DNA from: Kiritimatiellia bacterium
Lineage (GTDB): Bacteria; Verrucomicrobiota; Kiritimatiellia; RFP12; UBA1067
Assembly: GCA_051884915.1 (NCBI GenBank)
Contig: JBJEWF010000087.1
Location: 30,595-94,594, forward strand
DNA: 64,000 bases
Reading direction: 5' to 3'
Shown here: piece by piece, positions 13,284 through 61,392 of the stretch
Layout of the letters: every line of letters starts with the position of its first letter
Numbering within the stretch: position 1 is the stretch's first letter
Notes under the pieces: model-generated
What the model saw: the letters and a program-made list of their open reading frames with translations, nothing else
Database searches by the model: none
Told to the model about the DNA's origin: nothing
Translations under genes and position numbers: made by a program

Positions 13284-15137
13284 TCAGTTTTCATTCGAGT
13301 GGAGTCCGCCCGACCCCGCCTTGAAGACGATGTTGCCCCGGTCGGTTCCCGGCACCAGACAGGCGCAGTTCCAGATGCAGGCGCCGCAATGGACGCACTT
13401 CTCGCGGTCGAATTTCGGCGTCTGGCCCGGCTCGTCCGAAGGCATCAGCGCCTGGGCGGAACAGATTTCAATGCAGGTGTGCTTCGTGCAGGAGGCGCAC
13501 AGCGCGGGGTCTTCGAACGTCACGTGGTCGGCGAATCCGGGCGCGGCCTGGACCTTTCCCCCCAGCAGCAGCGCATCCTGGTGCTGCATCAGCAATTCGC
13601 CGTCAAACGGAATCGCCGGCCAGCCGCAGGCGTCCATCACCGCATCGTGCAGCGGCTTGCGCGCCTTTTCGGCGGCCGCGATCCCCTCGCGGAGCTTTGC
13701 CCGGTCGCACCGGCGCCCCTTGACGGCCGTCGCGAGATCGGGAATCCGCGAGGCGGGCGGCACGCTCTTGAACGGAAGCGCGAGGCCCAGCATGCCGCGC
13801 AGCCCTTCGCCCAGCATGCCGAGGAAGAAGGACTTGCTGAAACCATTGCGCGCGCCCGTCGCTTTCCGGAGGCGCTTGTCCAGCGCGGAGGCGCGACGAT
13901 CGGCAACATAGGTCGATTCCAGATTCGCCCGCGTGAAGTCCTTCCCCTCCCGGACGAGCGCGAGGACGGCCCGGGCCAGCTGGACGCCGCTGCACCAGGC
14001 CTCGTCGACGCCCGCATTGGCCAGAACGTCCGTCGTGCCCGAACCTTCGCCAATCCGGGCGAATCCGTCACCCGCGAGAAACGGTTCGCCTTCCTGCCCG
14101 GACTCCAGAATCGACTTGGCGCCCCAGCTCAAGAGCCTGCCGCCCTTGACGTGGCGCCAGATGTACGGATGCTGCATCCAATGCTGCAGATAGCGGTACG
14201 TCGTGCGGACGGGCGTATCCTGCCAGGGCGCGACAAAAATCCCCAGCGCCGCCGTCCGGTTCGGATAGACGTACATGAAGCCGAAGATTTCCGGCTCCGG
14301 GAAACCCAGCGTGTGGATCACCGTTCCCGGTTCCAGGTCGCAGGTTTCGGGCAGCTGGACCACGGCCTTCATGCCCACGCCCCAGTCGTATTGGTGATGG
14401 CCCTGCGGCAGACCGAATTTTTCATTCAGCGCCCGACCGACGGCGCCAACCGGACCATCCGCGACAACCGTCAGCGCGGCCTTGACGTCCATGCCCGGCA
14501 TGTAGGCGCCCTCAATCGGCGCGCCGTCCTTTTCAACGCCCTGGTCGACGAGGCGCACGCCCACGACTTTGTCGCCCGCGAACAGGGGGCCGGCAACGGG
14601 CATTCCCGGCATGATCATCAGGCCGGACTCCATGACCTTCTGGGACGCCCACGTCATGAACGAACCCATGGACATGACAAGTCCCCCCGCCTTGTCCATG
14701 AACGCCGGCGTGAACGGCAGTTCGCGGGCGTTCCACGCGCGCCCCTTCATGAAGGCTCCGCCCATTCTGAAGCAGAGATCGGCAAACCGGGTCGAGGCGC
14801 TCCGTTTCGAGCAGCCAATCGGGTCCAGCAGATAGGCCGTGTGCTCCCTGCCCACCGCAACGCAGTTCGGAATCTCCTGCGTCAGGTCGAGATCCGGAAA
14901 CGACGCGCGGATCGCCTCCGCCCGCGTGACGATGCCCGATACGCCAAAGCCGGGATCGTCGGCGCGTTCGTAGCACGTCACCTGCAGCGGGCAGCCGGGC
15001 ATGACCTTCGACTCGTAAAGGGGCGTGCCGTCGTCCTTCGTCTTGGCGAGTTCCGGACCCAACGTGGTCAAAAAGCCCGCCGCCGCCGGACCGAAGCCCG
15101 CCACCACAATGTCCACCGGCATTTCCTGTCTGTCCAT
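13284..15137 (-). CDS. Electron-transfer flavoprotein:quinone oxidoreductase-like protein (FixC-type flavoprotein fused to a FixX-type ferredoxin)
   Basis: An N-terminal FAD dinucleotide fold (DIVVAGFGPAAAGF) and a C-terminal Cys cluster (CTKHTCIEICSAQAL...CVHCGACIWNC). 617 aa. Confidence 0.75.
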   Translation of the reverse strand: MDRQEMPVDIVVAGFGPAAAGFLTTLGPELAKTKDDGTPLYESKVMPGCPLQVTCYERADDPGFGVSGIVTRAEAIRASFPDLDLTQEIPNCVAVGREHTAYLLDPIGCSKRSASTRFADLCFRMGGAFMKGRAWNARELPFTPAFMDKAGGLVMSMGSFMTWASQKVMESGLMIMPGMPVAGPLFAGDKVVGVRLVDQGVEKDGAPIEGAYMPGMDVKAALTVVADGPVGAVGRALNEKFGLPQGHHQYDWGVGMKAVVQLPETCDLEPGTVIHTLGFPEPEIFGFMYVYPNRTAALGIFVAPWQDTPVRTTYRYLQHWMQHPYIWRHVKGGRLLSWGAKSILESGQEGEPFLAGDGFARIGEGSGTTDVLANAGVDEAWCSGVQLARAVLALVREGKDFTRANLESTYVADRRASALDKRLRKATGARNGFSKSFFLGMLGEGLRGMLGLALPFKSVPPASRIPDLATAVKGRRCDRAKLREGIAAAEKARKPLHDAVMDACGWPAIPFDGELLMQHQDALLLGGKVQAAPGFADHVTFEDPALCASCTKHTCIEICSAQALMPSDEPGQTPKFDREKCVHCGACIWNCACLVPGTDRGNIVFKAGSGGLHSNEN

Positions 15138-15182: not shown

Positions 15183-15878
15183 CTATCCCAGCGGCGCCGG
15201 CGGTTCCGTCAGGCGCCCGCGTTCCAGCGCCAGGATCCGATCGCATTTTGCCGCGGCCGCGCGCGAATGCGTGACCATGACACACGCAAGCGGCGACTCG
15301 TTCAGTTCAAACAGCAGCTTCAGGATTTCGGCGCCCGTCAGCGCGTCGAGATTGCCCGTCGGCTCGTCGGCGAACACGATTTCCGGACGGCAGATCAGCG
15401 CACGGGCCAGAGCCACGCGCTGCTGTTCGCCGCCCGACAGTTCCGTGGGGAGATGCGCCAGCCGGTCTCCGAGTCCGACCTTTTCGAGAAGTTCCCGCGC
15501 GCGCGTGCGCGCGGAAGGGACGCGGGCGTATCCCGTCATTGTCGGCAGCAGAACGTTCTCCACGACATCCAATTCCGGCATCAGATGGAAACTCTGGAAG
15601 ACGAATCCGATTTTCGTCGCCCGCAGGCGATTGCTCCGCCACGCGGCCCCGAAACCGCGGAACAGCGACGTGCCGTCAAGCCGGACGTCGCCCGCCGTCG
15701 GCCGGTCCAGGCCGCCGAGGATGTTCAGCAGCGTCGTCTTTCCCGCGCCGCTCCGTCCGACAACGGCCACATGCTCGCCCCGGTCGACCGCGAACGCCAC
15801 CCCGTCGAGAACCCGAATCGGCTTCTGGCCGGGGAGCCGGTATTCCTTGACGACATCCTGGACGGTCAGCAAACTCAT
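15183..15878 (-). CDS. lolD: ABC transporter ATP-binding protein, LolD/MacB-type
   Basis: Walker A GRSGAGKTT, signature LSGGEQQR and Walker B IVFADEPT. Its start overlaps the stop of the upstream permease (15875-15878). Confidence 0.8.
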   Translation of the reverse strand: MSLLTVQDVVKEYRLPGQKPIRVLDGVAFAVDRGEHVAVVGRSGAGKTTLLNILGGLDRPTAGDVRLDGTSLFRGFGAAWRSNRLRATKIGFVFQSFHLMPELDVVENVLLPTMTGYARVPSARTRARELLEKVGLGDRLAHLPTELSGGEQQRVALARALICRPEIVFADEPTGNLDALTGAEILKLLFELNESPLACVMVTHSRAAAAKCDRILALERGRLTEPPAPLG

Positions 15879-17101
15879 TTGTTCAACGCCTCAACGGGAT
15901 TCTTGGACGCCGCGAGGAATGCCGGAACCAGCGCCGCCAGCAGACCAAACACGTAGACGACAACGACAACCCAGACGACGTCCGCCGTCACCAGGCGGTA
16001 CGGAAGCGAATCCAGTCCATACACCGCCTTCGGGAACACCTCCACGCCGAAGCGCGCCAGCTGTTCAACCAGATTCTGCAGATTCTTCAGCACCGCAAAC
16101 GCCGTCGCCAGCCCCAGCCCGGTTCCCGCCGTCACCTGGGCAAGGCCATGCACGACAAATGCCCCCATGATCTTCCGCTTCGGAAACCCCAGGGCCTTCA
16201 TCAGCCCGATTTGCGGCGTCTTCTGGACCGTCAGCACGAGCAGCGTATTCATCACGCAGAAAAGCGCGACGACCGTAATCAGCATCAGCAGAAGCGCCGT
16301 CATGTTCTTCTCCACGGCCAGGGCGTTGAACAGCTCGCGGTCCGCCTGCCGCCACGTCACCTGCCGGCAGTCCGGCGCAATCTGCCCGATCTTCTCGCAG
16401 ACCGCATTGAACGCGGGCACATTCGACGGTTCGGCCGTCTTGAGATGAATGGCGAAGACGCCTTTCTCCATCCCCATCAGGTCGCGGACGTTCGCGAGCG
16501 ACGCCACCGCAAACCCGCTGTCGTAATCGCGCTGTCCGGAGGAGAAGACGCCCGTCACCTTCCATTTGACCGGCAGATAGATTTCATCCCGACCCACCAG
16601 GGTCTTCGGCGAATAGACGGTGACCACGTCCCCGATCCAGGCTCCCAGCTGCCGCGCCAGATCCACGCCGAGGACGATGGAGTCGCCTTCGAGGTCGTAT
16701 TCGCCGGCACGCGGACGGCCGATGCTGTAGGCTTTGAGGAACCGGTCGGGATCGACGCCGAGAATCATCGGCGCGGAGATTCTGCCGCGGTGCTCCAGCA
16801 TGACCCGGGCGTCGATCTCCGGCGTCACGGCCGTGACGCCGGGAATCGCCTCAAGCCGCCGGGTCAGTTCGTCTTCGCCGCGGATGACATGGACGCCGCC
16901 ATACGGCGTCAGCGTGACGTGCGGCTTGAAATCGAGAATCTTCTTCTCCCACAGGTCGCCGAAACCCGTCATGACCGCGCGAACGATGATGACGGCGGCG
17001 ACCCCCAGCAAGACGCCCAAAACCGAAACGCAGGTGATCACGCTGGTGACGCTGCGTTTCGGCTTCAGGTATTTCAGCGCTAGAAACAGACTGAACGGCA
17101 T
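15875..17101 (-). CDS. LolC/LolE-family (FtsX/MacB-type) ABC permease
   Basis: MPFSLFLALKYLKPKRS... matches the typical LolC/E N-terminus. The protein has a large periplasmic loop and a C-terminal FtsX-like 3-TM bundle. I moved the start to ATG 17101, one base from the stop of the upstream gene; the track start is 17170. Confidence 0.8.
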   Translation of the reverse strand: MPFSLFLALKYLKPKRSVTSVITCVSVLGVLLGVAAVIIVRAVMTGFGDLWEKKILDFKPHVTLTPYGGVHVIRGEDELTRRLEAIPGVTAVTPEIDARVMLEHRGRISAPMILGVDPDRFLKAYSIGRPRAGEYDLEGDSIVLGVDLARQLGAWIGDVVTVYSPKTLVGRDEIYLPVKWKVTGVFSSGQRDYDSGFAVASLANVRDLMGMEKGVFAIHLKTAEPSNVPAFNAVCEKIGQIAPDCRQVTWRQADRELFNALAVEKNMTALLLMLITVVALFCVMNTLLVLTVQKTPQIGLMKALGFPKRKIMGAFVVHGLAQVTAGTGLGLATAFAVLKNLQNLVEQLARFGVEVFPKAVYGLDSLPYRLVTADVVWVVVVVYVFGLLAALVPAFLAASKNPVEALNK

Positions 17102-17102
17102 C

Positions 17103-18839
17103 TCAAATATCGATGGAGACGCCGACCTCGCCGCCCTTGTCCTTCGACAGCGCCTCGACGTCGGCTTCAACTTCCGTGGCCTTCAGGGTGGAAGTCGGCA
17201 GATAGCGGTAGTACACCATCAGCTGCAATGCGGCAAGACAGGTGCCCATCACATCGTAGTTGTAATGGTCGCCGTTCACCCAGTGTCCCATCTGGCGCGG
17301 CTTCCCCGAAGCGTCCTCGATGGTCAGCGGCTCCTTGGTCTTCGCATCGACGCACGTGATGATCGACTTCGGATAGAGCGCCTTCATCTCGGTGTTCCAC
17401 TTCTTCCAGAGCGTCTGGTTGGCCGGCGTGGCGTTCTTGCACATGCCGGCCTGGTATTTGCACTGGGCGGCGTAGTAGGAATAGTACTGCGAGTTCGGCC
17501 CGCCCGACATGTGCTTCTTGTCGAACGTCGGCGACCAGCCCTTCATGACGTCCAGCGCGTTGACGACTTCAGGGTCCTTGGCGTAGCCGAGGAGCTGCAT
17601 TGCAAGGCAGCCGACGCCGCCCAGACCGCCGCCGCTGCTTCCGGGACGGTAGACAAAGCCGGCCTTCTTGTTGTAGTTGCGCGTCTTGAGGCACTTGACG
17701 GCCTTCTTGATGCACTCCTCCTGCCCCGGCAGATGGATGCCCGCCATCTTGCCGGCCTTCAGCGCCTGCATGGCCCAGCCGCCGAACGAGATGTCGTCCG
17801 GCGCTTCCGTCGTCACGCGCTTCATGTTGTAGTTCCAGCCGCCGGTGGCCGTCTGGCCCGCGATGATGCGTCCCAGCGTCTTTTCGGCCGCCTCGCGCGC
17901 GTTCGGATTCCTGGTCATGCCGAACGCCTCGCACAGCGCGTAGGTGCCGATCAGGAAGCCGTACTCGGTCCCCGAGGCGCCGCGCATCTTCACCGACGGC
18001 GTGTTGCCGTTGTTGTCCTTCTTCAGCGAGCCGTCCTTGTTCTTCTCGATGTAGACGCTCTTGACCAGATAGTCGAGGGCTTTCTGCACCGTCGGGCCGA
18101 ATTCCTTCGAGCCGGGCGTTTCGCCGTGGGCGAGGAACGTCAGCACGGCGAAGCCGCAGCCCGCCGCCTTGTCCATGCCCTTCGTCAACCCGAACGCCGG
18201 CTTCGTGCCCCAGGAGCCGTCGGCATCCTGCGTGGCCTTCAACCAGCGCAGCGCCTTCATGACGGCGGCCTCCGTCAGCGCGTCGCCGTACTGGGCGCCG
18301 CCGCGCGTCTGCGTGCCGCGGACGCCCGCGCCGCGCTCCGTGCCCAGCACGGACTTGATCGTCACCGGGCTCTTGATGTTGAGCATCGCGTCGACGGACG
18401 CCACCTTCACCGACTGCGGTTCGGCCGTCGGCGCCGGCTGCTGCGCCACTTCCGTCGGATTCACCGTGGGCGTGTCCACGGCGATTTCAACGTCGATGTC
18501 CGGCGGCGGCTCCGTCTCCGGCGGCGGTTCGACCTCCTCAAGCTGCTCCTCCTGCTGGTCGGCCTGCACGATCTCGACCTTGATCTCCTGCCGGGTCCTG
18601 CTGCCCACCGCCGTCACGACGAACAGCACGATGACGCCGATCAATGGAATGAGAATGGCCATCAGGGGCGCGATCTGGCGCTGCAGCTCGATGATGGCCT
18701 CCTTGTATTCGCGCGAGGCGCGCGAACGGCCAAGGCCGGTGAACATCTTCAGAAGCCGCTTGAAATAGCCTTCCTCGTCGTATTTGGCCATTTCCTCCTC
18801 AAGGCGTTCCTTCATGACTTCTTCGTCAATCGTCTCCAT
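17103..18839 (-). CDS. TonB/TolA-like membrane anchor and Glu/Pro-rich spacer fused to a prenyltransferase/squalene-cyclase-like (QW-motif) alpha/alpha toroid domain
   Basis: 578 aa. An acidic cytoplasmic head, one TM helix (IAPLMAILIPLIGVIVLFVVTAVG) and a spacer (QQEEQLEEVEPPPETEPPPDIDVE...QQPAPTAEPQ). The C-terminal part carries two QxxxGxW motifs (ATQDADGSW, AGQTATGGW). It sits directly downstream of exbB-exbD-exbD. Confidence 0.7.
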   Translation of the reverse strand: METIDEEVMKERLEEEMAKYDEEGYFKRLLKMFTGLGRSRASREYKEAIIELQRQIAPLMAILIPLIGVIVLFVVTAVGSRTRQEIKVEIVQADQQEEQLEEVEPPPETEPPPDIDVEIAVDTPTVNPTEVAQQPAPTAEPQSVKVASVDAMLNIKSPVTIKSVLGTERGAGVRGTQTRGGAQYGDALTEAAVMKALRWLKATQDADGSWGTKPAFGLTKGMDKAAGCGFAVLTFLAHGETPGSKEFGPTVQKALDYLVKSVYIEKNKDGSLKKDNNGNTPSVKMRGASGTEYGFLIGTYALCEAFGMTRNPNAREAAEKTLGRIIAGQTATGGWNYNMKRVTTEAPDDISFGGWAMQALKAGKMAGIHLPGQEECIKKAVKCLKTRNYNKKAGFVYRPGSSGGGLGGVGCLAMQLLGYAKDPEVVNALDVMKGWSPTFDKKHMSGGPNSQYYSYYAAQCKYQAGMCKNATPANQTLWKKWNTEMKALYPKSIITCVDAKTKEPLTIEDASGKPRQMGHWVNGDHYNYDVMGTCLAALQLMVYYRYLPTSTLKATEVEADVEALSKDKGGEVGVSIDI

Positions 18840-18860
18840 GTCGGACTCCTTCCCCCCTCG

Positions 18861-19259
18861 TTACATGCTGAAGATCGAGAGATTGTACATGCCGTACTTG
18901 TTGCACGTGTCCAATGCGTCCACGAGGAACTTGTGCGGCGAATCCATCGTGCAGCGCACAAGGACCATGGACTTCTTCGACGTGGCCGACAGCTGCTTGA
19001 TGTTGCGGTCGAGTTCCTTGAGGGAGACGCCACGGCCGTTGAACACCAGGCCGCCGGGACCGATGTCGATCTTGATCTGGGTGTCGTTTTCTTCCTGGTT
19101 CGCGCTCGGCGCCGAGTTCGGCGCCGGCCGGTTCGCGTTCAGCTTGGAGAAAATGTCCTCCTGCTTGATCGTGACCACGAAGAAGATCATCAGCTGGAAC
19201 ACGACGTCGATCATCGGCGTCATCTCCGCTTTGGGATTTTCCTGCGTCTTGCGTGCCAT
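18861..19259 (-). CDS. exbD: Biopolymer transport protein ExbD/TolR
   Basis: 132 aa. EMTPMIDVVFQLMIFFVVT is the conserved TM helix with its Asp, followed by a periplasmic domain. Confidence 0.9.
   Translation of the reverse strand: MARKTQENPKAEMTPMIDVVFQLMIFFVVTIKQEDIFSKLNANRPAPNSAPSANQEENDTQIKIDIGPGGLVFNGRGVSLKELDRNIKQLSATSKKSMVLVRCTMDSPHKFLVDALDTCNKYGMYNLSIFSM
19171..19225 (-). repeat. Copy 1 of a 55-nt near-identical block shared by the tandem exbD paralogs
   Basis: gtgacCacgaagaagatCatcagctggaacacgacgtcgatcatcggcgtcatCt differs at only 3 positions from 19615-19669. The rest of the two genes is strongly diverged. Confidence 0.85.
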
Positions 19260-19280
19260 GTCAATTCCTCCGGCGCCCCG

Positions 19281-19706
19281 TCAGCGCGCCTTGCGCTCCT
19301 GGATCGCCACGAACGAGAGCTTCCACACGCCGCAGGCGGCGCAGATGTTCATCACCCGCGCGACGTCCCGGTGCTTGGCCCGGTAGTCCGCGCGAATCAT
19401 GCAGGGGAAGTCGGTGCCGTAACGCGCCTTGCGCTCCTTGATCTTCGAAGCCAGCATCGCGTCCGTCAACGTGATGTTGGACAGCGAGACGCGTCCGCTT
19501 CGCGCGACGTCGATCGTCAGCTGGGACGGCGGCAGTTCGTCCTGCGTCAGCACGATGCCGTGCTTGCCGTCCTCCAGCTTGATCGTCGAATCCTTGTCGT
19601 CGCTCATCTTCAGCGTGACGACGAAGAAGATGATCAGCTGGAACACGACGTCGATCATCGGCGTCATGTCCAGGGACGCGTCTTCATTTTTCGGTTTCTT
19701 GGCCAT
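19281..19706 (-). CDS. exbD: Biopolymer transport protein ExbD/TolR (second copy)
   Basis: 141 aa. DMTPMIDVVFQLIIFFVVT, followed by a periplasmic domain. Confidence 0.9.
   Translation of the reverse strand: MAKKPKNEDASLDMTPMIDVVFQLIIFFVVTLKMSDDKDSTIKLEDGKHGIVLTQDELPPSQLTIDVARSGRVSLSNITLTDAMLASKIKERKARYGTDFPCMIRADYRAKHRDVARVMNICAACGVWKLSFVAIQERKAR
19615..19669 (-). repeat. Copy 2 of the 55-nt near-identical exbD block
   Basis: gtgacGacgaagaagatGatcagctggaacacgacgtcgatcatcggcgtcatGt; see 19171-19225. Confidence 0.85.
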
Positions 19707-19731
19707 CGGGTCTACTCCCTTCGGAGTTCAA

Positions 19732-20550
19732 TCAGGCCTGGGCTTCCGATTCGACTTCGACGTTGCGGAGATCCTTGATGAGCTCCATCGTCAGCGCCGT
19801 CATGCGAAGGATGAGGCGGTTCGCGTTGTTGCGGATGGAGTAGAAGATCGTCAGCGCCGGGATCGAGACCACCAGACCGGCGGCCGTCGTCCACAGCGCC
19901 TGGGAGATGTTGCCGGCCAGCGCGCCGATGTCCGGCACGCCCGAAGCGAGAGTGGCGAAGCACATGATCATGCCTTGCACCGTACCCAGCAGACCGAGCG
20001 AAGGCGCGAGGTTGGAGCACACCGAAATCCACGTCAGACGCTGCATGATGCGCTCCGTCTCAAGATCGGCCGCCGCGTTGACGGATTCCTGAATGACGTC
20101 GAAGCCCTCCTCCACGTGCTGGAACGCGGCCGCCAGGATGTTGGACATCGCGCTCGGCTCGCTCTCGCACGCCTTCAGCGCCTTCATCACGTCGCCCTCG
20201 GCCATCGCGCCCTGGACGCTGTTGATGAGGGACTGCGGCATCAGCTTCTGGGGCTTGATCAGCACCCAGCAGTCCACCGCGAAGTAGATCGCCGCGGCGC
20301 CGTCGGCGAAAAGGGCGAACCACAGGATCACGCCCAGCGCGCCCGAACCGAACACGATGTCGAGAAAGCCGTTGCCGCCGCCCCTCTTCTCGCCGGCGTC
20401 GACCGGTTTGCCGCTGGTCGTGTCGACGAGGTCGCTCGCGGGCGCAGAAGAATCCTGGGCCATCGCGACATTCGTCGCAACGGGGGCGACAACCAGGCCG
20501 AGCATCATCAGGACGGCCATTACGGACTTCTGCGTTTTCTTCATGTTCAT
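19732..20550 (-). CDS. exbB: MotA/TolQ/ExbB proton-channel protein with a signal peptide and a periplasmic N-terminal extension
   Basis: The C-terminal half (LGLLGTVQGMIMCF...ALWTTAAGLVVSIPALTIFY) is the ExbB/TolQ signature. I moved the start to ATG 20550 (MNMKKTQKSVMAVLMMLGLVVAPVATNVAMAQ), which is preceded by AAGGAAC. Confidence 0.88.
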   Translation of the reverse strand: MNMKKTQKSVMAVLMMLGLVVAPVATNVAMAQDSSAPASDLVDTTSGKPVDAGEKRGGGNGFLDIVFGSGALGVILWFALFADGAAAIYFAVDCWVLIKPQKLMPQSLINSVQGAMAEGDVMKALKACESEPSAMSNILAAAFQHVEEGFDVIQESVNAAADLETERIMQRLTWISVCSNLAPSLGLLGTVQGMIMCFATLASGVPDIGALAGNISQALWTTAAGLVVSIPALTIFYSIRNNANRLILRMTALTMELIKDLRNVEVESEAQA

Positions 20551-20611
20551 TTTCTTTTGTTCCTTGCTTAGACTGTATTGTCGGATACCTGATTCAAACT
20601 CGCGCATCACC

Positions 20612-21406
20612 CTACCGGGCCGCCCACGGGCTGGACTTGTAGGTTCTCTTCAGCTCGCGGCGCATCGCATCGGCGCGGCCGCTCTGGCCCAGGTGCTCGA
20701 AGCACTTGGCGGCCTTGTAGAGCGCCTCCGGACGCAGCCGGTCGGCGATTTCCGGATCGCGGCAGCAGAGCACGACGCGCAGATAGCCGTCCGCCAGCGC
20801 CTTCTTCGCCGCGTCCGCGCTGTCGTTCCCCGCCTTCATGACGATGTCGCCACGCATGAGCAGCGCGGCGCCGGCGGAGAAACCGTCTCCGCTCTTGGCG
20901 GCCCGGTCAAGCAGCTTCTCAAGAGCCGGGACTCTGTCCAGCCCCAGCAGCGACGCCCAATAGGCCGGCGCCAGATCGCCCTTGTAGGCCGCCGCGGGTT
21001 CGCCGTCGATGATCGCCTTGCACGCCCGGTAGGCGTCGTTGGGCTTCGAGGCCGCAAGATAGGCTTCCGCCAGATACCGCCCCGCCACCTTGTCCCACTG
21101 CAGATGCTTGTATTCGGCCACGATCTTCTGCAGGGCGGGAATCGCCGCCGCGCCCTGTCCCTGCGCGACGCGGGCGATGGCATCGTCCAGCGCCGCGGGC
21201 TTCTCGATGTCGACATTCTCGACTTCGGACTCCTTGAACTGGAGCTCCACGCCGCCCTTCGTCACCACATAGGCCTTGTCGCGCGAACTCCAGGCGATCA
21301 TGCCCTTCTGCGTGTCGCCGTTCTCGGTCGTGATCGTGCCTTTCGCCGCGCCCCATGCCGATGCCGCCGCGCAGACCGCAAAAACCCAAACTACGCTCCT
21401 GTACAT
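20612..21406 (-). CDS. Secreted TPR-like/helical-repeat protein
   Basis: 264 aa. Signal peptide MYRSVVWVFAVCAAASAWGAAKG, a small beta-rich head, then Ala/Leu-rich helical repeats. A GGAGG lies in the 12-nt gap after the large TPR gene. Confidence 0.6.
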   Translation of the reverse strand: MYRSVVWVFAVCAAASAWGAAKGTITTENGDTQKGMIAWSSRDKAYVVTKGGVELQFKESEVENVDIEKPAALDDAIARVAQGQGAAAIPALQKIVAEYKHLQWDKVAGRYLAEAYLAASKPNDAYRACKAIIDGEPAAAYKGDLAPAYWASLLGLDRVPALEKLLDRAAKSGDGFSAGAALLMRGDIVMKAGNDSADAAKKALADGYLRVVLCCRDPEIADRLRPEALYKAAKCFEHLGQSGRADAMRRELKRTYKSSPWAAR

Positions 21407-21418
21407 TGCCGCCTCCTT

Positions 21419-24400
21419 TTAATCCGCCTTGACCGAATTGAGCGCGTTCTGCACATCCGTCTTGCGCTTGCCGTCCGGAAAGAGCTCAAGATAGGTATTC
21501 GCGTACCTGACGATCGTCTCGCGCTGCTCCGCCTTGGCCTCCTTCTCCTCTTTCGAGCCGTCCGCCATCTTCGGCAGAATCTTCGCCATCAGCGGCAGCG
21601 CCGCGGCGTAGCACCGTTCCAGATTGGCGAGTTCGGCCGGCGTCATGTCCTTCGCCGGGTGCGCCTCCGTCGGCTCGTGCGACATCAGGAAGGCCTGGAA
21701 GCCGGACACCGCCAGGCGCGCGGTCTCCTCCGCCTTCGCCGCCAGGCCCATCGCCTCCTCGGCCTCCATCTTCCGCACCAGGATCTCCGCCGAGCGCAGT
21801 TCGAGAATGTCCAGATCGGCTTTCGTCTTCTTGAAGGCGCGGACCTTCTTGAGCGCGCCCACGGCCGCGTTGAAATACTTGCGGCGCATGTCGTCGTCCT
21901 TCTCGCGGCGGCCTTCCTCGGCGGCGATTTCGACGATCATCTCGTAGGCGTCGACCACCAGGCGGCTCTTGCCGTATTTCTCCGTGAAATCGTCCAGCTT
22001 CTGGTGGGCTTCGCTCCAGGACTCCGCCCCCTTGAGCGCCTTGGCCTGGCCAACCAGCGCCATCTGGACGATGGCGGTCGCGTTCGACGCGCCCTTCGAC
22101 AGGTCAATGGCCTTCGCGTAGGCCTCCTGCGCGACGTCCCATCCCTTCGCGTCCAGCAGGGCGTTGCCCGCCATCAGGAACTGGCCGGCCGTGTACTTCC
22201 CGTCCGGCGTCGAGAGCATCTGCCGGTACTGCGCGACGCCTTCGGCGCGCAGCCCCATCTCGATGAGCGTCTTCGCCAGGCGCGGCACCGAGTTCTTGGC
22301 CTCGTCCGAATCGGGGAATTCCTTCTGCAGGCGGGCGAACGCCTCCTGCGACTTCTCCATGTTCTTCTCCGCCGTCCAGATCGTTCCGATCTTCACGAGA
22401 ATCTGCGGCGCGTACCGGCCCTTCGGGTTGGTCGCGAGATAGTTCTCGTAGGCCTTGACGGCCATGCCGCGGAACGCCGGAATCTTGTCCGCCGGCCATT
22501 GCAGGCGCTGCCAGCTTTCACCTTCGAGATACTGGGCCTGTTCGCGCTGGAGGACGTACGTGTCCCGTTCGGCGGCCGGCAGGCCCTTGTCCTCCAGCGC
22601 CTTCCCGATCAGGGCCGTCGTCGCGCGGAAATCCTTGATCGCGCCCGCCACGCCGCCATAGCCCTGCTTGCGGAGGCTCTCCGCCGCCGCCACGTCATTC
22701 GTCCCGGCTGCCGCGTCGAACGACGCGAAGCCGCGCTTCTGCTCCATCAGCGCCAGACTCAGCTGCGAGGAGATCTTCTCGCTGGGCTTCTTCGCGACGT
22801 TCGCGAACTTGCGCAGCCAGCTTTCCTGCTCGTGCGAATTGCCGAGTTTGCCATGGCAGGTCGAGAGGCATTGCAGCGAGCTCGCGTAGTACGGCGAGTT
22901 CGTGTAGGCGGTCGCCACCATTTCGTAGAAGTGGATCGCCTTCTCCCAGTCCTCGGCCTTCATCGCCTGCCCCGCCAGGGAGAGCGCCGTCTGCGACGCG
23001 TTGTAATGGCTGCCGAAGTTCTTGAAATAGAGGTCGTAGACTTCCTGCGAACGCGCCAGCGCGCCCGTTTCGCGCTCCTTGATCGCCAGACGGAGCAGTT
23101 CGTCGCCGGCGGCGCGCTCCCGCGCGTCGCCCTTGCCGGCGAACTGCTTGACGAGCTCCTCTTCCGCCGCCGTCGCCGCCGCGCGGAACTCCTGCTTCTT
23201 CTTGGCGTCCCTTTCGTTCTGCCCCAGGGCCAGGTTGCAGTCCGCCAGGATGGCGATCGCCCCCGGCGCCTCCTCCGCGTCCGGGAACTGCTTCAGGAGC
23301 GCCGTGTAGGCCTTGAGCGCCCCCGCGAAGTCGCTGCCCTTGAATATCGAATAGGCGTTGTTGAACTGCGCCTGACGGACCTTCGCCATCTGGTCCGGCG
23401 AAATGTTCACGGCCTTCTTCAGGTCCTTTTTGTAGCGTTCCTGGACGAAAGCCGCAATCTCCTCGTAGATCTGCCCCGCATCCGCCGCGACCGACGATTC
23501 CGGGTATTTCACGTAGACGTTGACGGCGTGGTTGAAGGCGCCCAGACCGTTGCGCTTGCCGTTCACCTTCGCCCCGAGGATGGCGGCGGTGATCTTCGCG
23601 TCGTCGGGCTTCGCCGCCTTCGCTTCGGCCTTGGCCACGTCCCACAGCATCTTCGCCAGCAGATAGCGGCACTCGGGCATCGGGCTCATGCGCACATAGC
23701 CCAGCTTGCCGTCGGGATCCTGCTCCAGCAGGCTGTTGTGGATCTCCGCCAGCTGCGGCATGTAGCCGTTCACCAGGCTCTGCGCCTTCTCGACGTTGCC
23801 GGTCAGCATCTCGATGTGCGCCTTCATCGCGATGGCCTTGCCGAACACGATGATGAGGTCGTTCTTCCACAACAGCTTGTCCACCAGCGCCGTCGCCTGG
23901 GCGAGGTAGCTCTTCCGCTTCTCCAGCAGGGCCTTGTCCTTGCCGCCCTCGACCTTGATGTCCTCGGCCAGATTGATGAACAGCCCCGCCGCCTCCATCG
24001 CCACCGCGCACCAGCGCTCTTCCGGCAGATTCTTGGACAGCAGCCCGCCGTACATCTTCACGGCCTCGTCGAAATTCCTCTCGGCCACGCAGATCTGCGC
24101 CCACGTGAAACCGGCCTGGACGTAGAAGTCGACCAGTTCCGGACCCGGCTTCTGGACTTTCGCGAAGAACTCCTGGTAGATCTTGCGGCACTCGGCCATC
24201 ATCGAACGCGCGTAGTAGGCGTCGGCCATGGACAATTTCAGCGCCCAGTACTCGCTGCCGTTCTTGTCCTGCATGCCGTCGATGACCTTCTGCACGTCCG
24301 CAAACTTGCCCAGCCGGAGATCGCCCTGGATTTCCAGGACTTTCAGCTTCGGCCCGAGCTGGGGCCACTTCTTCTTGGCCGCGGCGATCACGATTTCGGC

Positions 24401-24580
24401 GAAGTCGGGCATGTTCGCCTCGATCAGCGCCGCGATGTAGGCTTCCTCCTCCTTCATCGCCGCGGCGTCGGCGTCGGCCGGCTCGGCGTCGGCCGCGCGC
24501 GCGTGCGCGAACGGAACGAGGACACTCGCGGCCAGCGCCGCGAATGCGAGAGCACGACTATAGGTATGGCTAAATCTCAT
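21419..24580 (-). CDS. Large secreted tetratricopeptide (TPR) repeat protein
   Basis: About 1053 aa from ATG 24580 (MRFSHTYSRALAFAALAASVLVPFAHARAAD, signal peptide). It shows many 34-aa-type A/Y/L-rich repeats (e.g. AYYARSMMAECRKIYQEF, AQYLEGESWQRL). The track start 24688 would run through the pgk terminator. Confidence 0.75.
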   Translation of the reverse strand: MRFSHTYSRALAFAALAASVLVPFAHARAADAEPADADAAAMKEEEAYIAALIEANMPDFAEIVIAAAKKKWPQLGPKLKVLEIQGDLRLGKFADVQKVIDGMQDKNGSEYWALKLSMADAYYARSMMAECRKIYQEFFAKVQKPGPELVDFYVQAGFTWAQICVAERNFDEAVKMYGGLLSKNLPEERWCAVAMEAAGLFINLAEDIKVEGGKDKALLEKRKSYLAQATALVDKLLWKNDLIIVFGKAIAMKAHIEMLTGNVEKAQSLVNGYMPQLAEIHNSLLEQDPDGKLGYVRMSPMPECRYLLAKMLWDVAKAEAKAAKPDDAKITAAILGAKVNGKRNGLGAFNHAVNVYVKYPESSVAADAGQIYEEIAAFVQERYKKDLKKAVNISPDQMAKVRQAQFNNAYSIFKGSDFAGALKAYTALLKQFPDAEEAPGAIAILADCNLALGQNERDAKKKQEFRAAATAAEEELVKQFAGKGDARERAAGDELLRLAIKERETGALARSQEVYDLYFKNFGSHYNASQTALSLAGQAMKAEDWEKAIHFYEMVATAYTNSPYYASSLQCLSTCHGKLGNSHEQESWLRKFANVAKKPSEKISSQLSLALMEQKRGFASFDAAAGTNDVAAAESLRKQGYGGVAGAIKDFRATTALIGKALEDKGLPAAERDTYVLQREQAQYLEGESWQRLQWPADKIPAFRGMAVKAYENYLATNPKGRYAPQILVKIGTIWTAEKNMEKSQEAFARLQKEFPDSDEAKNSVPRLAKTLIEMGLRAEGVAQYRQMLSTPDGKYTAGQFLMAGNALLDAKGWDVAQEAYAKAIDLSKGASNATAIVQMALVGQAKALKGAESWSEAHQKLDDFTEKYGKSRLVVDAYEMIVEIAAEEGRREKDDDMRRKYFNAAVGALKKVRAFKKTKADLDILELRSAEILVRKMEAEEAMGLAAKAEETARLAVSGFQAFLMSHEPTEAHPAKDMTPAELANLERCYAAALPLMAKILPKMADGSKEEKEAKAEQRETIVRYANTYLELFPDGKRKTDVQNALNSVKAD

Positions 24581-24587
24581 GGCGGCA

Positions 24588-24616
24588 AGTATAATGGAAA
24601 AACCGGCATGCGTCAA
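24588..24616 (-). promoter_or_regulatory. Sigma70-type promoter TTGACG-17-TATACT, 7 nt upstream of the TPR gene ATG (candidate leaderless)
   Basis: Minus strand reads gtgcTTGACGcatgccggtttttccatTATACTtgccgccATG. The -35 hexamer lies in the loop of the pgk terminator hairpin. Confidence 0.7.
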
Positions 24617-36896: not shown

Positions 36897-39800
36897 TCAG
36901 GATGGAGGGACGGACGGAAAAAACGAATAGAACTGGTACCACTGCCCGGGATGGGCGCGCGTTTCGGTTTCGAGGAAAGAGACGTATTGCGCGAGCAGCG
37001 CCGAAAGCCGGAGGCCGGCGGACGGGTCCGGCGGGGAGAATTGGCGGACGTGGACTTCATAGGAATTCCAGCCCGTGCGGACGCACGTCGTGAAGAAGAC
37101 GGGGGCCTCCATCAGCTTGGCGAAGACGAAAACGCCCTTGGGCCAACGGCAGGGACGGCCGAGAAATTCCCGCCGCAGCGTCTTGTCCGATCCGGCGCTC
37201 ACGCGATCGCCCGCCATCAGAACGAGTTCGCCGCGGGCAATCGCCTCCTGCATCGCCACGGCCGTCTCCACGCCAATGTCCTCGACCGCATGAAGCGTCA
37301 GCTTCGCGGCGTCGAAATGCTTCATGAAAAAACCGGTGAAAACGGCATCGTGCCCCATCTGCTGGAATGCGTGGACATGGGGAACGTCCCCGTGCGGCCG
37401 CCCCGCCGCCAGAGCCGGCAGGACTTCGACCGTTCCCACGTGCGTCGAAATCAGAAAGGCGCCCTTCTTCATCGCGACCAGATTCTGAAAGGCCCGCCCG
37501 CCCTCGTCAAGGCGCACCGTCATCTTCGGCAGATTCTTCTTCAAGGTGCAGGCGTCCGTCTTGTCGGCCAGCGACCAGGCGAATCCGAGGAGGTGGGCGA
37601 ACAGGCGGCCGTGGCCGGGCGACCGCCGGCCCTTCCAGAGAACCGCGTAGAATTCCCGCAATGCGGCACGGGCCGGCCCGGCAAATGGATAGATGAACGC
37701 CATCACGGGGACGCAGAGGATCTTCAGCGCGGTCTTGCCCAGTCCGGCGTAGACGCACCAGAGGAGGGCAAGGCGGAGGGTGCCGGCGCTTTGCTCCCGC
37801 TGGTCGTGCCAACGGAGTGCCGAAGGCTGGCGGCCGGGCGGCGGAGAGGAGGCCGGAAGCGACAGAAGATAGGCGAACGCGAGACCGAGGGCGAAGGTGA
37901 TCCCCATGTCGCGCGTGACGGGGAAGGCGGTGAAGGACAGCATGCCGAGACCGGCGAACGACGTGAGAAAAGAATAAAAGACCGTGCGGCGCGTCTCTGG
38001 CGCGGGGCGGGTCCGGTTGAAGATCACATAGTCCAGACTCAGCCCGACGAGCACGAAGAAGCAGAGCAGCGTGAAGAAGGTCACGGGAATCCGCAGCCAG
38101 CCGAGCATGGCCGCCGTGCCGGCAAAAGCCAGGGCAACCGGCATGACCATCTTGACGAACTGCCGGCGGAAGAGGACGGCCAGCAGAAGCCCCAACGCGA
38201 GAAGCGATCCGCCGAGAAGTTTGCAGGTCTGGCGGAAATACGCCGCAAACAGCGTTTCGAGCGCCGCGCCCGGTTCGACCACGACAATCGCGGGGTCGGC
38301 CGGAACGTAGTCCCGCGCGCAGGGGACGATCAGCCCCTGTTCGGCGCGAAAGGCCTTCACGAGACGCCGCAGGCTTTCGTCTTCCAGTTTCTCCGCGTCG
38401 AGAAAAGATTCCGGTTCCCAGACGACTTCCAGTCCCGTCCGCGCCCGATAGGCCGCGCCCTCCGCACGGGAGAGCTTGCGAACCAGCTCCGCGTTCTCGC
38501 GCTGCCGTTTCAACGACGGAACGATTCCCGACAATCCCTTCAGGCCCGCCGCCTCCTCCCGTTCCAGCGCCTCCTGCAGCGTCTTCCCCCGCACATACGC
38601 AAAGCGCGTGGACAGCGCGGGATTCAACCCGGCCAGCAGGGTCTCTCCGCGGGCCAGATAGGGCGTGGGACGATAAAAAGCCGCAGGCGCGGAACTGGCC
38701 GAGAGGGCGTGAAGCCCCGCCAGAACCAACCCGCCCAGCAGCGCCCACGCGCCCGCCGCCACGCCACGCGGCAGACGGCGGACCCGCGGACGCGGAACCG
38801 CCCGCCACGACGCGTCCGGCCGCGACATTCCGCGCGGAGGTCCGCCTGCGGCGAGGAACACGCTCGCGTAGGCCGTGAGCAGGCCGGCCGAAGCGAAGAG
38901 CGCCATCTCGCGCAACACGGGGACGGCCGCGGCGAACAGCGGCGCGAAACAGGCCACCGTGGTCAGGAACGAATTCGTGAGCGGCCGGACGATGTTGCGC
39001 GCACCGCCCGCGGCACGCGCATGGTAGACATAATCGACCGAAAGGCCGATCAGCGACGTGCCGAAGACAAACGTCAGGACATGCGCTTCGGGGTAAACAA
39101 GCAGCAGAACGGCCGTTGCGACCAGAAAGGCCGAACCAATCGAGAACAGCAGGCCGGGAACGAACCGCAGAGACCGGAAGAGGGCCCATCCGAGCAGCAG
39201 CACCAGACCTGTCGAGACAAGTGAAAGCACGTTGATTTCCCGCTGCGCCCGGTCCGCCGTCGCCACCGCATGGAAGAGCGGTCCGCAGCACCAGACTTTT
39301 CCATCGTGGGTCCCGTTGCGCCTCTGCATGGCATGCATCCACGCGACGAGACGCGTTTCGCCCACGCGCCGGACGGCGTCGGAATCCAGCGTCAGAAGCA
39401 AGTAGTGGCGCCCGTCCTTCTCGCGGACGGGATACCCGTCTTTCAGCGTCCAGCCGTCGGCCAGGTCCGCCTGCAGGGACATCGCATAGTCCGTCGCCAG
39501 GAGAAAGGGGTCGCGTTTGACCGGAAACAACGGCGGCATCGGACCATACAGGCGCGCCAGCGAATCCTCGGCCACCTCCCGGAACTTCCCCTCAAGCAAC
39601 AGCCTGCGGGTTTCCGGCGCCAGCAGCCCCGACTTGCGCGCGTCCAGATAGCGAAGCGTCGCCTTGAAATCCAGGCGAACCGCCTGCTGCAGATTGGAGG
39701 AGACGCCGGCCGCCAGTTCCCGGACGGCGGCGGCGTCCGCCCCCTCGATCAGCACATGGCCCCGATTGGCGGAACCGGCCGCCACCTCCCGGATCAGGGG

Positions 39801-39938
39801 CGCGGAATCGGTCGCAACGAGGCTGAACAGATCCGAGCGGACGGCAAGTCCACGATTGATCCGAACCCCCAGAACGGCAAGGGCCGCCAGAAGCAGACAG
39901 CCGAATGCGCACCGCCCCCTGGCCAACCAGGACGTCAC
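36897..39938 (-). CDS. Fusion protein: MMPL/RND-type predicted exporter (N-terminal ~710 aa) + LpxL/HtrB-type lipid acyltransferase (C-terminal ~300 aa)
   Basis: 1013 aa. Two 5-6-TM bundles are separated by soluble domains, with the paired motifs GTSLIGLSVDYVYH and VLVGLSLDYVIF. The C-terminal part carries the H(x)4E acyltransferase motif (STHVGTVEVL) and the MAGDRV region. Confidence 0.7.
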   Translation of the reverse strand: MTSWLARGRCAFGCLLLAALAVLGVRINRGLAVRSDLFSLVATDSAPLIREVAAGSANRGHVLIEGADAAAVRELAAGVSSNLQQAVRLDFKATLRYLDARKSGLLAPETRRLLLEGKFREVAEDSLARLYGPMPPLFPVKRDPFLLATDYAMSLQADLADGWTLKDGYPVREKDGRHYLLLTLDSDAVRRVGETRLVAWMHAMQRRNGTHDGKVWCCGPLFHAVATADRAQREINVLSLVSTGLVLLLGWALFRSLRFVPGLLFSIGSAFLVATAVLLLVYPEAHVLTFVFGTSLIGLSVDYVYHARAAGGARNIVRPLTNSFLTTVACFAPLFAAAVPVLREMALFASAGLLTAYASVFLAAGGPPRGMSRPDASWRAVPRPRVRRLPRGVAAGAWALLGGLVLAGLHALSASSAPAAFYRPTPYLARGETLLAGLNPALSTRFAYVRGKTLQEALEREEAAGLKGLSGIVPSLKRQRENAELVRKLSRAEGAAYRARTGLEVVWEPESFLDAEKLEDESLRRLVKAFRAEQGLIVPCARDYVPADPAIVVVEPGAALETLFAAYFRQTCKLLGGSLLALGLLLAVLFRRQFVKMVMPVALAFAGTAAMLGWLRIPVTFFTLLCFFVLVGLSLDYVIFNRTRPAPETRRTVFYSFLTSFAGLGMLSFTAFPVTRDMGITFALGLAFAYLLSLPASSPPPGRQPSALRWHDQREQSAGTLRLALLWCVYAGLGKTALKILCVPVMAFIYPFAGPARAALREFYAVLWKGRRSPGHGRLFAHLLGFAWSLADKTDACTLKKNLPKMTVRLDEGGRAFQNLVAMKKGAFLISTHVGTVEVLPALAAGRPHGDVPHVHAFQQMGHDAVFTGFFMKHFDAAKLTLHAVEDIGVETAVAMQEAIARGELVLMAGDRVSAGSDKTLRREFLGRPCRWPKGVFVFAKLMEAPVFFTTCVRTGWNSYEVHVRQFSPPDPSAGLRLSALLAQYVSFLETETRAHPGQWYQFYSFFPSVPPS

Positions 39939-40396
39939 GGCGCCGTCCCCGCCGCGTCGGTCCGCTTCAAGTCGATTTCAAGACGGTCGCCGTTCTTGAA
40001 GAAGACGCGGACGCGTTCAGGGAACTTCTTCTCCGGAGCGACTTTCACTTCGCGGACGAAGTCCCCGATCTCCCGGATCTCAAAAATCTTTTCCAGGGAG
40101 GAGACGTCGACGTTCAACGCCCGCGTCGTGGATTTGCCGCGGACCGTCATCGTGTAGTTCGTCGGCGTGGCGAGGAACGTCGAAGGCACCGGCTGAAGCG
40201 TCTTGAACTCGAAGCTTCTGCCCTTCTCGAAACGGAACGTGCCCGAAGACGCGAGCGCGACGTCCACGTCCGCCAGAATCTTCCGCTGGACAAAGACGCC
40301 TTCGGCAAACTGCGGCAGATCGTCCGGCGCGACGGCGGCGGGAAAAGCCGTCCCGCCCAGGAACAGACTCAAAAGCACAAGATGCCGCTGGAGCAT
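39935..40396 (-). CDS. LolA-like outer-membrane lipoprotein-carrier-fold protein
   Basis: 153 aa from ATG 40396 (MLQRHLVLLSLFLGGTAF, signal peptide). FVQRKIL...LASSGTFRFEKGRSFEFKTLQP resembles the LolA-like proteins of aryl-polyene-type clusters. Its stop overlaps the start of the downstream gene. Confidence 0.6.
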   Translation of the reverse strand: MLQRHLVLLSLFLGGTAFPAAVAPDDLPQFAEGVFVQRKILADVDVALASSGTFRFEKGRSFEFKTLQPVPSTFLATPTNYTMTVRGKSTTRALNVDVSSLEKIFEIREIGDFVREVKVAPEKKFPERVRVFFKNGDRLEIDLKRTDAAGTAP

Positions 40397-61359: not shown

Positions 61360-61392
61360 GAACATCCTCCCCTCACTCCGGTCGCCGGCCTC

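Follow-up and report, generated by a model that had tools for sequence, protein, structure and literature searches.

The 64,000-nucleotide (64-kb) stretch analysed here, called the window (1-64000), comes from a Kiritimatiellia bacterium (contig JBJEWF010000087.1, positions 30,595 to 94,594 of the forward strand). Its subject is a run of eight genes packed into positions 15183-24580 of the minus strand. These genes encode a putative ExbB/ExbD-type proton-motive-force (PMF) motor, two secreted tetratricopeptide repeat (TPR) proteins, a membrane-anchored toroid protein that we call Tor, and an ATP-binding cassette (ABC) transporter of the Lol family. All open reading frames (ORFs) were verified at their coordinates, and Pfam and NCBIfam searches back the identities. 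From the promoter downward, the cluster reads as follows.

24588-24616, minus strand: sigma70-like promoter TTGACG-17-TATACT, predicted from sequence, 10/12 consensus matches
21419-24580, minus strand: TPR1, 1053 amino acids (aa) from MRFSH (maximal ORF, 1089 aa), an all-helical, secreted TPR/solenoid protein whose signal peptide lacks a lipobox
20612-21406, minus strand: TPR2, 264 aa, secreted, in which a small beta-rich segment at the N-terminus precedes a helical, TPR-like domain
19732-20550, minus strand: ExbB/TolQ-type motor subunit, 272 aa (Pfam MotA_ExbB, 87.9 bits)
19281-19706, minus strand: ExbD/TolR paralogue 1 (ExbD1), 141 aa (Pfam ExbD, 81.5 bits)
18861-19259, minus strand: ExbD/TolR paralogue 2 (ExbD2), 132 aa (Pfam ExbD, 73 bits)
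17103-18839, minus strand: Tor, a 578-aa bitopic toroid protein with a transmembrane (TM) helix, a Pro/Glu linker, and an (alpha/alpha)6 toroid
15875-17101, minus strand: LolF-type (LolC/E family) ABC permease, 408 aa (Pfam MacB_PCD and FtsX)
15183-15878, minus strand: LolD-type ABC ATPase, 231 aa (LolD is the top NCBIfam match)

With biologically sensible start codons, the junctions from TPR1 to LolD measure 12, 61 (43% GC), 25, 21, 21, 1, and -4 nucleotides (nt); that is, LolF starts 1 nt past the Tor stop codon, and the LolD start overlaps the LolF stop by 4 nt. Most genes of the cluster are preceded by a GGAGG-type ribosome-binding site. The shared strand is uninformative because every gene-like ORF of the window (about 45 with gene-like codon bias, i.e., high third-position GC, in DNA of 65% GC) lies on the minus strand. 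Cumulative GC skew declines steadily across the window, and the one-strand gene run is unusually long.

Only two sites such as TTGACG-17-TATACT occur in 13 kb, where 1.4 are expected. Of the related loci, 25/46 have a strict sigma70-like element no more than 90 nt upstream of TPR1, compared with 0.3% of random 100-nt windows from the same loci, and so the promoter upstream of TPR1 is conserved. Because the -10 box ends 7 nt ahead of the TPR1 ATG and TPR1 has no Shine-Dalgarno (SD) sequence, this first gene may be read from a leaderless mRNA. The same spacing between the -10 box and the ATG as in the window (24580-24616) recurs in loci L006, L008, L009, L010, and L082. No terminator-like site was found between the eight genes or after LolD, and the intergenic gaps gave no Rfam match at the gathering score. 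The next gene downstream encodes an ETF-QO-like oxidoreductase (13284-15137). Since it lies only 45 nt past LolD with no terminator between, the 3' end of the transcript is not readable from the sequence. This gene was considered as a ninth member of the cluster and rejected, being retained only in relatives with at least 62% Tor identity.

Conservation of the cluster was assessed in a one-genome-per-species scan that gave 80 loci, to which the window proteins were mapped by tblastn. By label, most of these loci are from Kiritimatiellia or Kiritimatiellaeota metagenome-assembled genomes (MAGs), and the rest are from Verrucomicrobia, Lentisphaerae, Lentisphaeraceae, "uncultured bacterium," and a few unrelated taxa; Tor identity to the window protein ranges from 37 to 82%. 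Tor homologues were found in at least 536 of the 600 candidate stretches checked, which corresponds to hundreds of species-representative genomes. ExbD is encoded directly upstream of Tor in 64/80 loci, and where such loci offer enough sequence, ExbB is present in 59/59, TPR2 in 50/52, and TPR1 in 47/49. The invariant unit is the six-gene core TPR1-TPR2-ExbB-ExbD-ExbD-Tor, which is almost never broken. In one locus (L050:4945-15783), the module is partly duplicated, reading TPR1-Tor-TPR1-TPR2-ExbB-ExbD-ExbD-Tor fragment.

LolF directly follows Tor in 49/60 loci, with 48 of these within 300 nt. It is not beside Tor in the other 11, one of which belongs to a 73%-identical relative, and such losses are scattered among close and distant relatives; the genes found downstream instead share no relation to each other. 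LolD follows LolF in 38/46 loci, and one subclade still has LolF beside Tor with LolD encoded elsewhere. Binning the loci by Tor identity served as a control for plain phylogenetic inertia, with pgk upstream and ETF-QO downstream as the flanks for comparison.

Tor identity of 60% or more: LolF adjacent in 10/11 loci, ETF-QO downstream in 8/10, pgk upstream in 3/5
Tor identity of 45-60%: LolF adjacent in 29/33 loci, ETF-QO downstream in 0/25, pgk upstream in 1/24
Tor identity below 45%: LolF adjacent in 10/16 loci, ETF-QO downstream in 0/7, pgk upstream in 0/9

Because pgk and ETF-QO decay at identities where LolF stays adjacent, the LolF linkage outlives the ordinary neighbours, yet it is clearly looser than the six-gene core. 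Given that they are missing from 11/60 loci and from a further example, described next, the Lol genes are best seen as favoured partners in the operon that stand outside the core.

That example comes from Lentisphaerae. Using a distant Tor representative as the query, we reached Lentisphaerae and Victivallales proteins, and the Lentisphaerae genome GCA_001804805 encodes a 1104-aa TPR protein, a 262-aa protein, a 272-aa ExbB-like protein, ExbD, ExbD, and a 566-aa Tor in the same order and with matching sizes. A pseudopilin gene on the opposite strand is inserted between the second ExbD and Tor, and no Lol genes adjoin this core. Compared with the window proteins, identities are 42% for ExbB, 39% and 31% for the ExbDs, and 30% for Tor. 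Profile alignment with hhalign relates TPR1 to the 1104-aa protein (probability, 98.9; E = 3e-17; 687 columns) and TPR2 to the 262-aa protein (probability, 94.5; E = 7.5e-8). Since the same six genes are found in this second phylum, the core is older than the split between the two phyla, and the Lol linkage appears to be a trait of Kiritimatiellia. The remaining Tor genes seen in Lentisphaerae stand alone or in tandem.

Tor itself is 100% identical to an NCBI protein of a Kiritimatiellia MAG and belongs to a large family. An exhaustive HMMER search of 1.84 billion cluster representatives returned 6091 clusters at E ≤1e-3; at E ≤1e-30, the number is 308. Many of these are full-length matches with 30-55% identity. 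The charged N-terminus of Tor (aa 1-56) is cytoplasmic by the positive-inside rule, and it is followed by a single TM helix (aa 60-78) and a Pro/Glu-rich linker (approximately 81-184), of which aa 95-140 contain 22% Pro, 28% Asp plus Glu, and 0 Lys/Arg. Two AlphaFold2 (AF2) models, the second built from a 55-sequence alignment across both phyla with pLDDT confidence values of ~80-95 in the toroid, agree that residues 79-184 are disordered and that residues 185-543 form a twelve-helix (alpha/alpha)6 toroid. Past the last toroid helix (…VYYRYLPT) is a 20- to 47-aa acidic stretch that ends in alternating hydrophobics in 225/307 members. These ends are beta-strand-like (e.g., EVGVSIDI and DDLGLKIE), and we infer that the tail may act as a docking strand.

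The TM helix of TonB family proteins carries the motif S-x3-H-x6-L-x3-S (SHLS). A His occurs in the TM helix of 117/118 Lentisphaerae-type Tor proteins, and the pattern G-P-x2-S-x3-H-x6-hydrophobic, which is the register of the TonB/TolA SHLS motif, is matched by at least 101 of them. In a joint alignment, the Pro of the Lentisphaerae G-P corresponds to the near-invariant P58 of the window protein. On the grounds of this motif and of the P58 alignment, which places A61 and P65 at the Ser and His positions, the anchor of the Tor family appears to be of the TonB/TolA type and remodelled in Kiritimatiellia. Tor is best read as the force transducer of the motor, because its Lentisphaerae homologues carry the TonB/TolA-like S-x3-H in the TM helix.

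Databases give Tor proteins names such as "prenyltransferase/squalene oxidase repeat-containing" and "terpene cyclase/mutase family." A terpene or squalene-hopene cyclase (SHC) reading was nevertheless rejected. The Pfam SQHop_cyclase_C match of Tor is partial (27.3 bits against a cutoff of 26.1, covering 78/319 profile positions), scores against SHC NCBIfam models are 21-25 bits where the cutoffs are 322-431, no DxDD motif occurs in Tor, and there is just one clear QW-like repeat. The prenyltransferase and terpene cyclase labels are almost certainly wrong for these proteins. Foldseek searches of the PDB with the two AF2 models recovered generic (alpha/alpha)6 toroids alone (TM-score, ~0.3-0.67; 9-17% identity), including squalene-hopene cyclases, AGE-family epimerases, GH76, GH8, and the prenyltransferase beta subunit, and because these matches are only generic, no specific function can be transferred to Tor from them.

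Hints at what the toroid does come from its fusions and neighbours. In proteins P0257 and P0161, the toroid is fused to a Ser/Thr kinase domain (Pkinase) and forms the extracytoplasmic part; one of the two is labelled Kiritimatiellia. In P0182, a zf-HC2 anti-sigma domain is fused to a full-length Tor, and in P0130, seen once, the toroid is fused to an ExbD periplasmic domain. Also, lone Tor paralogues without ExbBD were found at 14 loci, several of them in the same MAGs as an operon copy. At three loci (L058:10001-12995, L073:2693-5781, and L068:3098-5317), a lone Tor is directly followed by an extracytoplasmic function (ECF) sigma factor, after which a zf-HC2 anti-sigma factor is encoded in two of them (L058 and L073). 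These ECF sigma and anti-sigma neighbours, together with the P0182 fusion, suggest that some Tor proteins join in trans-envelope signalling. Given that Ser/Thr kinases and an anti-sigma factor use this domain as their extracytoplasmic module, the toroid is most likely a modular head that binds a ligand or partner, and its use as a sensor module in the same lineages indicates that it probably recognises a specific envelope or glycan ligand. Further Tor arrangements were seen. At L071:10001-13314 and L074:7332-10613, the Tor match spans ~3.3 kb, which points to a double-length or tandem Tor. A second, independent instance of Tor close to an ABC system of the MacB type comes from a Lentisphaerales MAG (L084:3299-11572), where the genes upstream of a lone Tor encode an ABC ATPase (42% identical to LolD), two permeases of the MacB/FtsX type, and a Peptidase_C39_2 protein of 1004 aa.

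ExbB has a cleavable signal peptide and a periplasmic N-terminal extension of ~35 aa. Its top NCBIfam and PDB matches are TolQ and then ExbB, all of them weak: TolQ reaches 66 bits (cutoff, 221), PDB TolQ gives E = 7.5e-7, and alignment to E. coli TolQ/ExbB is confined to TM2-TM3. Similarly, the two ExbDs score 28-37 bits against TolR (cutoff, 127). The motifs GLLGTV in TM2 and ALWTTxxGL in TM3 are kept in all 61 ExbB orthologues examined, and the TM Asp is conserved in both ExbD paralogues (ExbD1 motif, MIDVVF(Q/E)L). At the position of the conserved TM3 Glu (E176 in E. coli ExbB and E173 in TolQ), both ExbBs of the window (19732-20550 and 61806-62441) have Gln (SQAL / SQAI), and this residue is kept across Kiritimatiellia orthologues. 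The second of these ExbBs is of canonical size (211 aa), is 31% identical to the operon ExbB, and is paired with a 138-aa ExbD (61393-61809), also on the minus strand. Next after this pair come a secreted protein of 719 aa, which has seven CxxCH haem motifs and TM helices at its C-terminus, and then ApbE (whole group, 59206-62441); no TonB or TolA gene lies beside the pair. A defence-system identity for the cluster, along the lines of Zorya-like MotAB, was rejected, since PADLOC gave only generic ABC ATPase similarity.

For TPR1, matches to TPR_6, YbgF/CpoB-like, and BamD-like repeats were obtained, all under curated cutoffs, and a PDB sequence search found no relative. The Cys in the TPR2 signal peptide is not conserved, which argues against lipidation of TPR2; neither TPR1 nor TPR2 is a predicted lipoprotein.

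What the first-pass annotation of this DNA had claimed is partly upheld by these data. The coordinates, junctions, and TTGACG-17-TATACT promoter of its eight-gene cluster are confirmed, and the cluster is conserved in relatives; synteny, which might have ended at this genome, extends through the 80-locus set to Lentisphaerae. Signal peptides on both TPR proteins agree with its view that they are secreted, and the signal peptide and periplasmic extension that it had given to ExbB are confirmed. Its description of the 578-aa protein as a noncanonical TonB-like element fits the TM helix, Pro/Glu linker, and toroid, as well as the S-x3-H of the Lentisphaerae homologues. Within the 64-kb window, there is, as it stated, no TonB-dependent receptor, TolB, or Pal.

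As for the ABC transporter, the permease matches LolF best over its full length in the PDB (9w37; E = 8.6e-40), followed by LolC and then LolE, and the best match of the ATPase is LolD. On these matches, the two are predicted to form a LolDF-type lipoprotein-release transporter. Scores are below the curated cutoffs for both the permease (TIGR02212 lolCE, 254 bits; cutoff, 362.45) and the ATPase (TIGR02211 LolD, 230.1 bits; cutoff, 307.75), which may reflect phylogenetic distance from the organisms used to build these models. LolDF is a general housekeeping system in diderms, and this LolF/LolD pair looks like the general lipoprotein-release pump of the cell. The MacB/LolCDE-type exporter of the first-pass annotation is best read as an ordinary LolF-type release pump. 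The Tor stop and LolF start are 1 nt apart without an SD sequence, which suggests that translation of the two is coupled. Because this junction is so tight and the Lol linkage persists where pgk and ETF-QO are lost, a functional link between the Lol genes and the module is possible. We know of no precedent for a Lol permease translationally coupled to a Ton/Tol-like transducer gene.

Considering these lines of evidence together, we propose that the conserved unit in these gut Kiritimatiellia bacteria is probably a PMF motor module of the Ton/Tol/Agl class with a toroid-headed, TonB-like transducer and two TPR scaffolds. If ExbBD, TolQR, and AglRQS are a guide, ExbB and the two distinct ExbDs would form a 5:2-type inner-membrane motor (ExbB5 plus an ExbD1/ExbD2 heterodimer). 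Tor would be the output arm, built like TonB or TolA with a cytoplasmic N-terminus, one TM helix, and a Pro/Glu linker of ~100 residues that could span the periplasm. In place of the TonB C-terminal domain, it would present the (alpha/alpha)6 toroid and the short acidic, beta-strand-like tail, and the toroid would bind a ligand or partner. TPR1 and TPR2 would act as periplasmic scaffolds, comparable to GltD/GltE in Agl-Glt and to CpoB in Tol-Pal. In most Kiritimatiellia, LolF-LolD would be cotranscribed with the module and translationally coupled to Tor without being an obligatory subunit. We think that the role of the module is envelope maintenance or the delivery of force to an outer-membrane, peptidoglycan, or glycan partner. 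The sequence data show which genes are present, their order and conservation, their domain architecture and motifs, and the conserved promoter; the stoichiometry, a contact between Tor and ExbB, the part of TPR1 and TPR2 as scaffolds, the kind of ligand bound, and this physiological role are inferred.

Several observations weigh against this proposal. The window Tor lacks S-x3-H, having the near-invariant A61 and P65 in place of Ser and His, and the argument for a TonB-like anchor therefore leans on its homologues. ExbB and the ExbDs score far under every curated equivalog cutoff, and a PDB sequence search with ExbD1 gave no match. The contacts of Tor with ExbB/ExbD and with the TPR proteins are presumed by analogy. 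The ExbD-toroid fusion P0130 was given little weight because it occurs on one contig. Also, the invariant polar and aromatic residues of the toroid (E304, D349, Q358, Y293, Y337, and W355) would fit an enzyme too. Lastly, treating the Lol genes as mere neighbours does not account for the strong retention of LolF beside Tor.

That retention is a point in favour of a combined PMF- and ATP-driven machine, as put forward in the first-pass annotation. In such a machine, all eight proteins would act as one trans-envelope device in which the proton motor ExbBD is coupled to the ATPase LolDF and which extracts and sorts surface proteins or lipoproteins; Tor, TPR1, and TPR2 would serve as its periplasmic carrier or bridge. 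The linkage is close and persistent: LolF is within 300 nt of Tor in 48 of the 49 loci where it follows, it stays adjacent in 29/33 loci at 45-60% Tor identity (ETF-QO, 0/25; pgk, 1/24) and in 10/16 below 45%, and it stands beside Tor in the subclade where LolD is elsewhere. The 1-nt Tor-LolF junction without an SD sequence, suggesting translational coupling, points the same way. Moreover, no core protein is a predicted lipoprotein, and therefore supplying the module with lipoproteins of its own does not explain the linkage; toroids of the terpene-cyclase/prenyltransferase class are also known to bind lipids. Nevertheless, Lol adjacency is lost in 11/60 loci, both close and distant and including the 73%-identical relative, LolD is missing after LolF in 8/46, and the Lentisphaerae module has no Lol genes beside it. 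LolF and LolD, furthermore, look ordinary and have no extra domains, and LolDF is a housekeeping system of diderms. The persistent Tor-LolF linkage is real, and a single eight-protein machine is unlikely. A more specific scheme, to which we assign a low probability, makes ExbBD-Tor-TPR a PMF-powered periplasmic trafficking device in direct partnership with LolDF: LolF would hand acylated lipoproteins or other lipid-anchored cargo to the hydrophobic cavity of the toroid, and the motor would deliver them through the periplasm along the TPR scaffold, replacing or supplementing LolA/LolB in Kiritimatiellia. If true, it would be the first case of PMF being used in lipoprotein sorting.

Other explanations concern Tor or the grouping of the genes. 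If Tor were a membrane-anchored periplasmic enzyme (a terpene cyclase/prenyltransferase or a glycan-active (alpha/alpha)6 protein) beside an unrelated ExbBD operon, then its database names, its weak SQHop_cyclase_C match, the squalene-hopene cyclases, GH76, GH8, and AGE epimerases among its Foldseek matches, and its invariant acidic and aromatic toroid residues would make sense. The limited Pfam coverage, the low SHC scores, and the missing DxDD motif described above contradict the cyclase version, and other features are poorly suited to any version: the toroid is periplasmic and sits behind a long linker, linkage to ExbD is tight (21-nt gaps; 64/80 loci; two phyla), homologues carry a TonB-like TM motif, and the kinase and anti-sigma fusions indicate a role in sensing or binding. 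We consider this enzyme reading quite improbable, while noting that catalysis and force transduction by Tor can coexist. A canonical TonB system, in which ExbB, ExbD, and TonB energise TonB-dependent outer-membrane receptors for nutrient uptake, would agree with the ExbB/ExbD family matches, the bitopic, Pro-rich nature of Tor, the S-x3-H motif in Lentisphaerae homologues, and the several lone Tor paralogues per genome, which resemble multi-TonB genomes; also, Pontiella has been reported to have TonB-dependent transporters. It is very improbable, however, as Tor ends in a 360-aa toroid with no TonB_C domain (PF03544), no TonB-dependent receptor is present in the window or in annotated related loci, the top ExbB/ExbD matches lean to TolQ/TolR, and K. 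glycovorans is reported to lack genes for TonB-dependent-receptor polysaccharide uptake systems (Spring et al.). Finally, the genes might form no functional unit at all, being housekeeping genes that are merely adjacent on a long one-strand stretch, as could be argued from the single strand of the window and from ETF-QO, which is also just 45 nt away without a terminator. For the six-gene core, this is refuted by the synteny data, since its genes stay in order at 37-82% Tor identity and even in another phylum, whereas pgk and ETF-QO drop out of the flanks; the promoter is also conserved, and most genes are joined by 1- to 25-nt gaps or overlapping codons. We regard it as scarcely credible.

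The motor module that we favour has wider implications. Tor would represent a widely conserved, misannotated transducer family with a new working end. Kiritimatiellota and Lentisphaerota are major anaerobic degraders of glycans, both sulfated and mucin-type, and the function of a PMF-driven toroid arm could explain how these bacteria maintain or use their outer membrane, a question made relevant by the reported lack of TonB-dependent-receptor polysaccharide uptake genes in K. glycovorans. The conserved coupling to LolF, in turn, offers a lead on a possible tie between PMF motors and lipoprotein traffic.

Elsewhere in the window, the minus-strand region 36897-42583 contains two tandem acyl-carrier-protein genes (42066-42583) and encodes an AMP-binding and FabA/ApeI-dehydratase-like protein (40369-42066), as well as 164-aa and 1013-aa proteins with no Pfam match. 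It may be a lipid or aryl-polyene-type biosynthetic cluster.

To our knowledge, proton energy from the inner membrane reaches the outer envelope in the Ton, Tol, and Agl motors alike via an arm of the TonB or TolA type, which has a small TonB-CTD-like domain at its end. Judged by gene set and architecture, the closest described analogue of the present module appears to be the Agl-Glt core complex, followed by Tol-Pal and Ton. The Agl-Glt core (aglR, aglQ, aglS, gltD, gltE, gltG, and gltC) is found in Myxococcus, other Proteobacteria, and Fibrobacter (PMC3169522; PMC11761067). It comprises the TolQ-like AglR, two TolR-like proteins, the bitopic, Pro-rich GltG, and the secreted TPR proteins GltD (1191 aa) and GltE (471 aa) (Luciano et al. 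2011, PMC3169522). The core is clustered in several phyla, and its function outside gliding bacteria is unknown (PMC3169522); a published model depicts it as a motor with a flexible arm and a TPR shaft (Commun Biol 2025, PMC11761067). By comparison with PMC3169522, both systems combine a single TolQ-like gene with two that are TolR-like, and both encode a bitopic transducer whose periplasmic linker is disordered, Pro-rich, and ~100-120 residues long, as well as a TPR protein of ~1100 aa plus a smaller one, both with signal peptides; all of these genes are clustered. They differ in that GltG has a TonB-CTD-like end and cytoplasmic FHA domains, whereas Tor has an (alpha/alpha)6 toroid and a 56-aa cytoplasmic segment. 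Furthermore, no genes for a GltC-like lipoprotein or outer-membrane barrel were seen in the present cluster, and its ExbB carries a signal peptide and periplasmic extension.

Resemblance to Tol-Pal lies in the top ExbB/ExbD matches, which, though weak, are TolQ/TolR, in the CpoB/YbgF-like repeats of the TPR proteins, in the bitopic transducer, and in a housekeeping context and wide conservation, as would be expected of an envelope-maintenance system. However, the cluster is without TolB, Pal, and TolA domains II/III, it has two ExbD paralogues rather than one TolR, and its scores are far under the equivalog cutoffs. No TolA, TolB, or Pal was found in the window or in Pfam-annotated related loci, and a paper on the distribution of Tol-Pal makes no statement specific to these phyla (PMC8871954).

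With Ton systems, the module shares the Pfam ExbB/ExbD families, the Pro/Glu-rich spacer of Tor, the S-x3-H of Lentisphaerae, several transducer paralogues per genome, and a transducer encoded beside ExbB/ExbD (ExbD, 64/80 loci; ExbB, 59/59). Serratia ExbB (PDB 7ajq and 6ye4), which presumably has a signal peptide and an N-terminal extension, provides a precedent for an extended ExbB, and the window protein matches these long chains weakly in sequence. Unlike TonB, Tor lacks the TonB C-terminal domain, has no TonB-dependent receptor nearby, and, in the window, replaces the TonB Ser and His with Ala and Pro. The LolDF/LolCDE comparison is simpler: the permease aligns over its full length with LolF, LolC, and LolE and has MacB_PCD and FtsX domains, the ATPase has LolD as its top match, and the single permease gene fits the homodimeric LolF type, the difference being scores under the NCBIfam cutoffs (254 versus 362.45 and 230.1 versus 307.75).

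The literature that we searched contained nothing linking ExbBD to Tor-like toroid proteins or a Lol permease to a Ton/Tol-like transducer. A 2025 survey described many uncharacterised "generic ion transporter" relatives of ExbBD/TolQR (the "GIT" clade; PMC12505986). Set beside these systems, the present module looks like an undescribed variant of the Ton/Tol/Agl motor family, in which two phyla of the Planctomycetes-Verrucomicrobia-Chlamydiae (PVC) group, Kiritimatiellota and Lentisphaerota, would pair the same motor and arm with a working end formed by a 360-residue alpha/alpha toroid.

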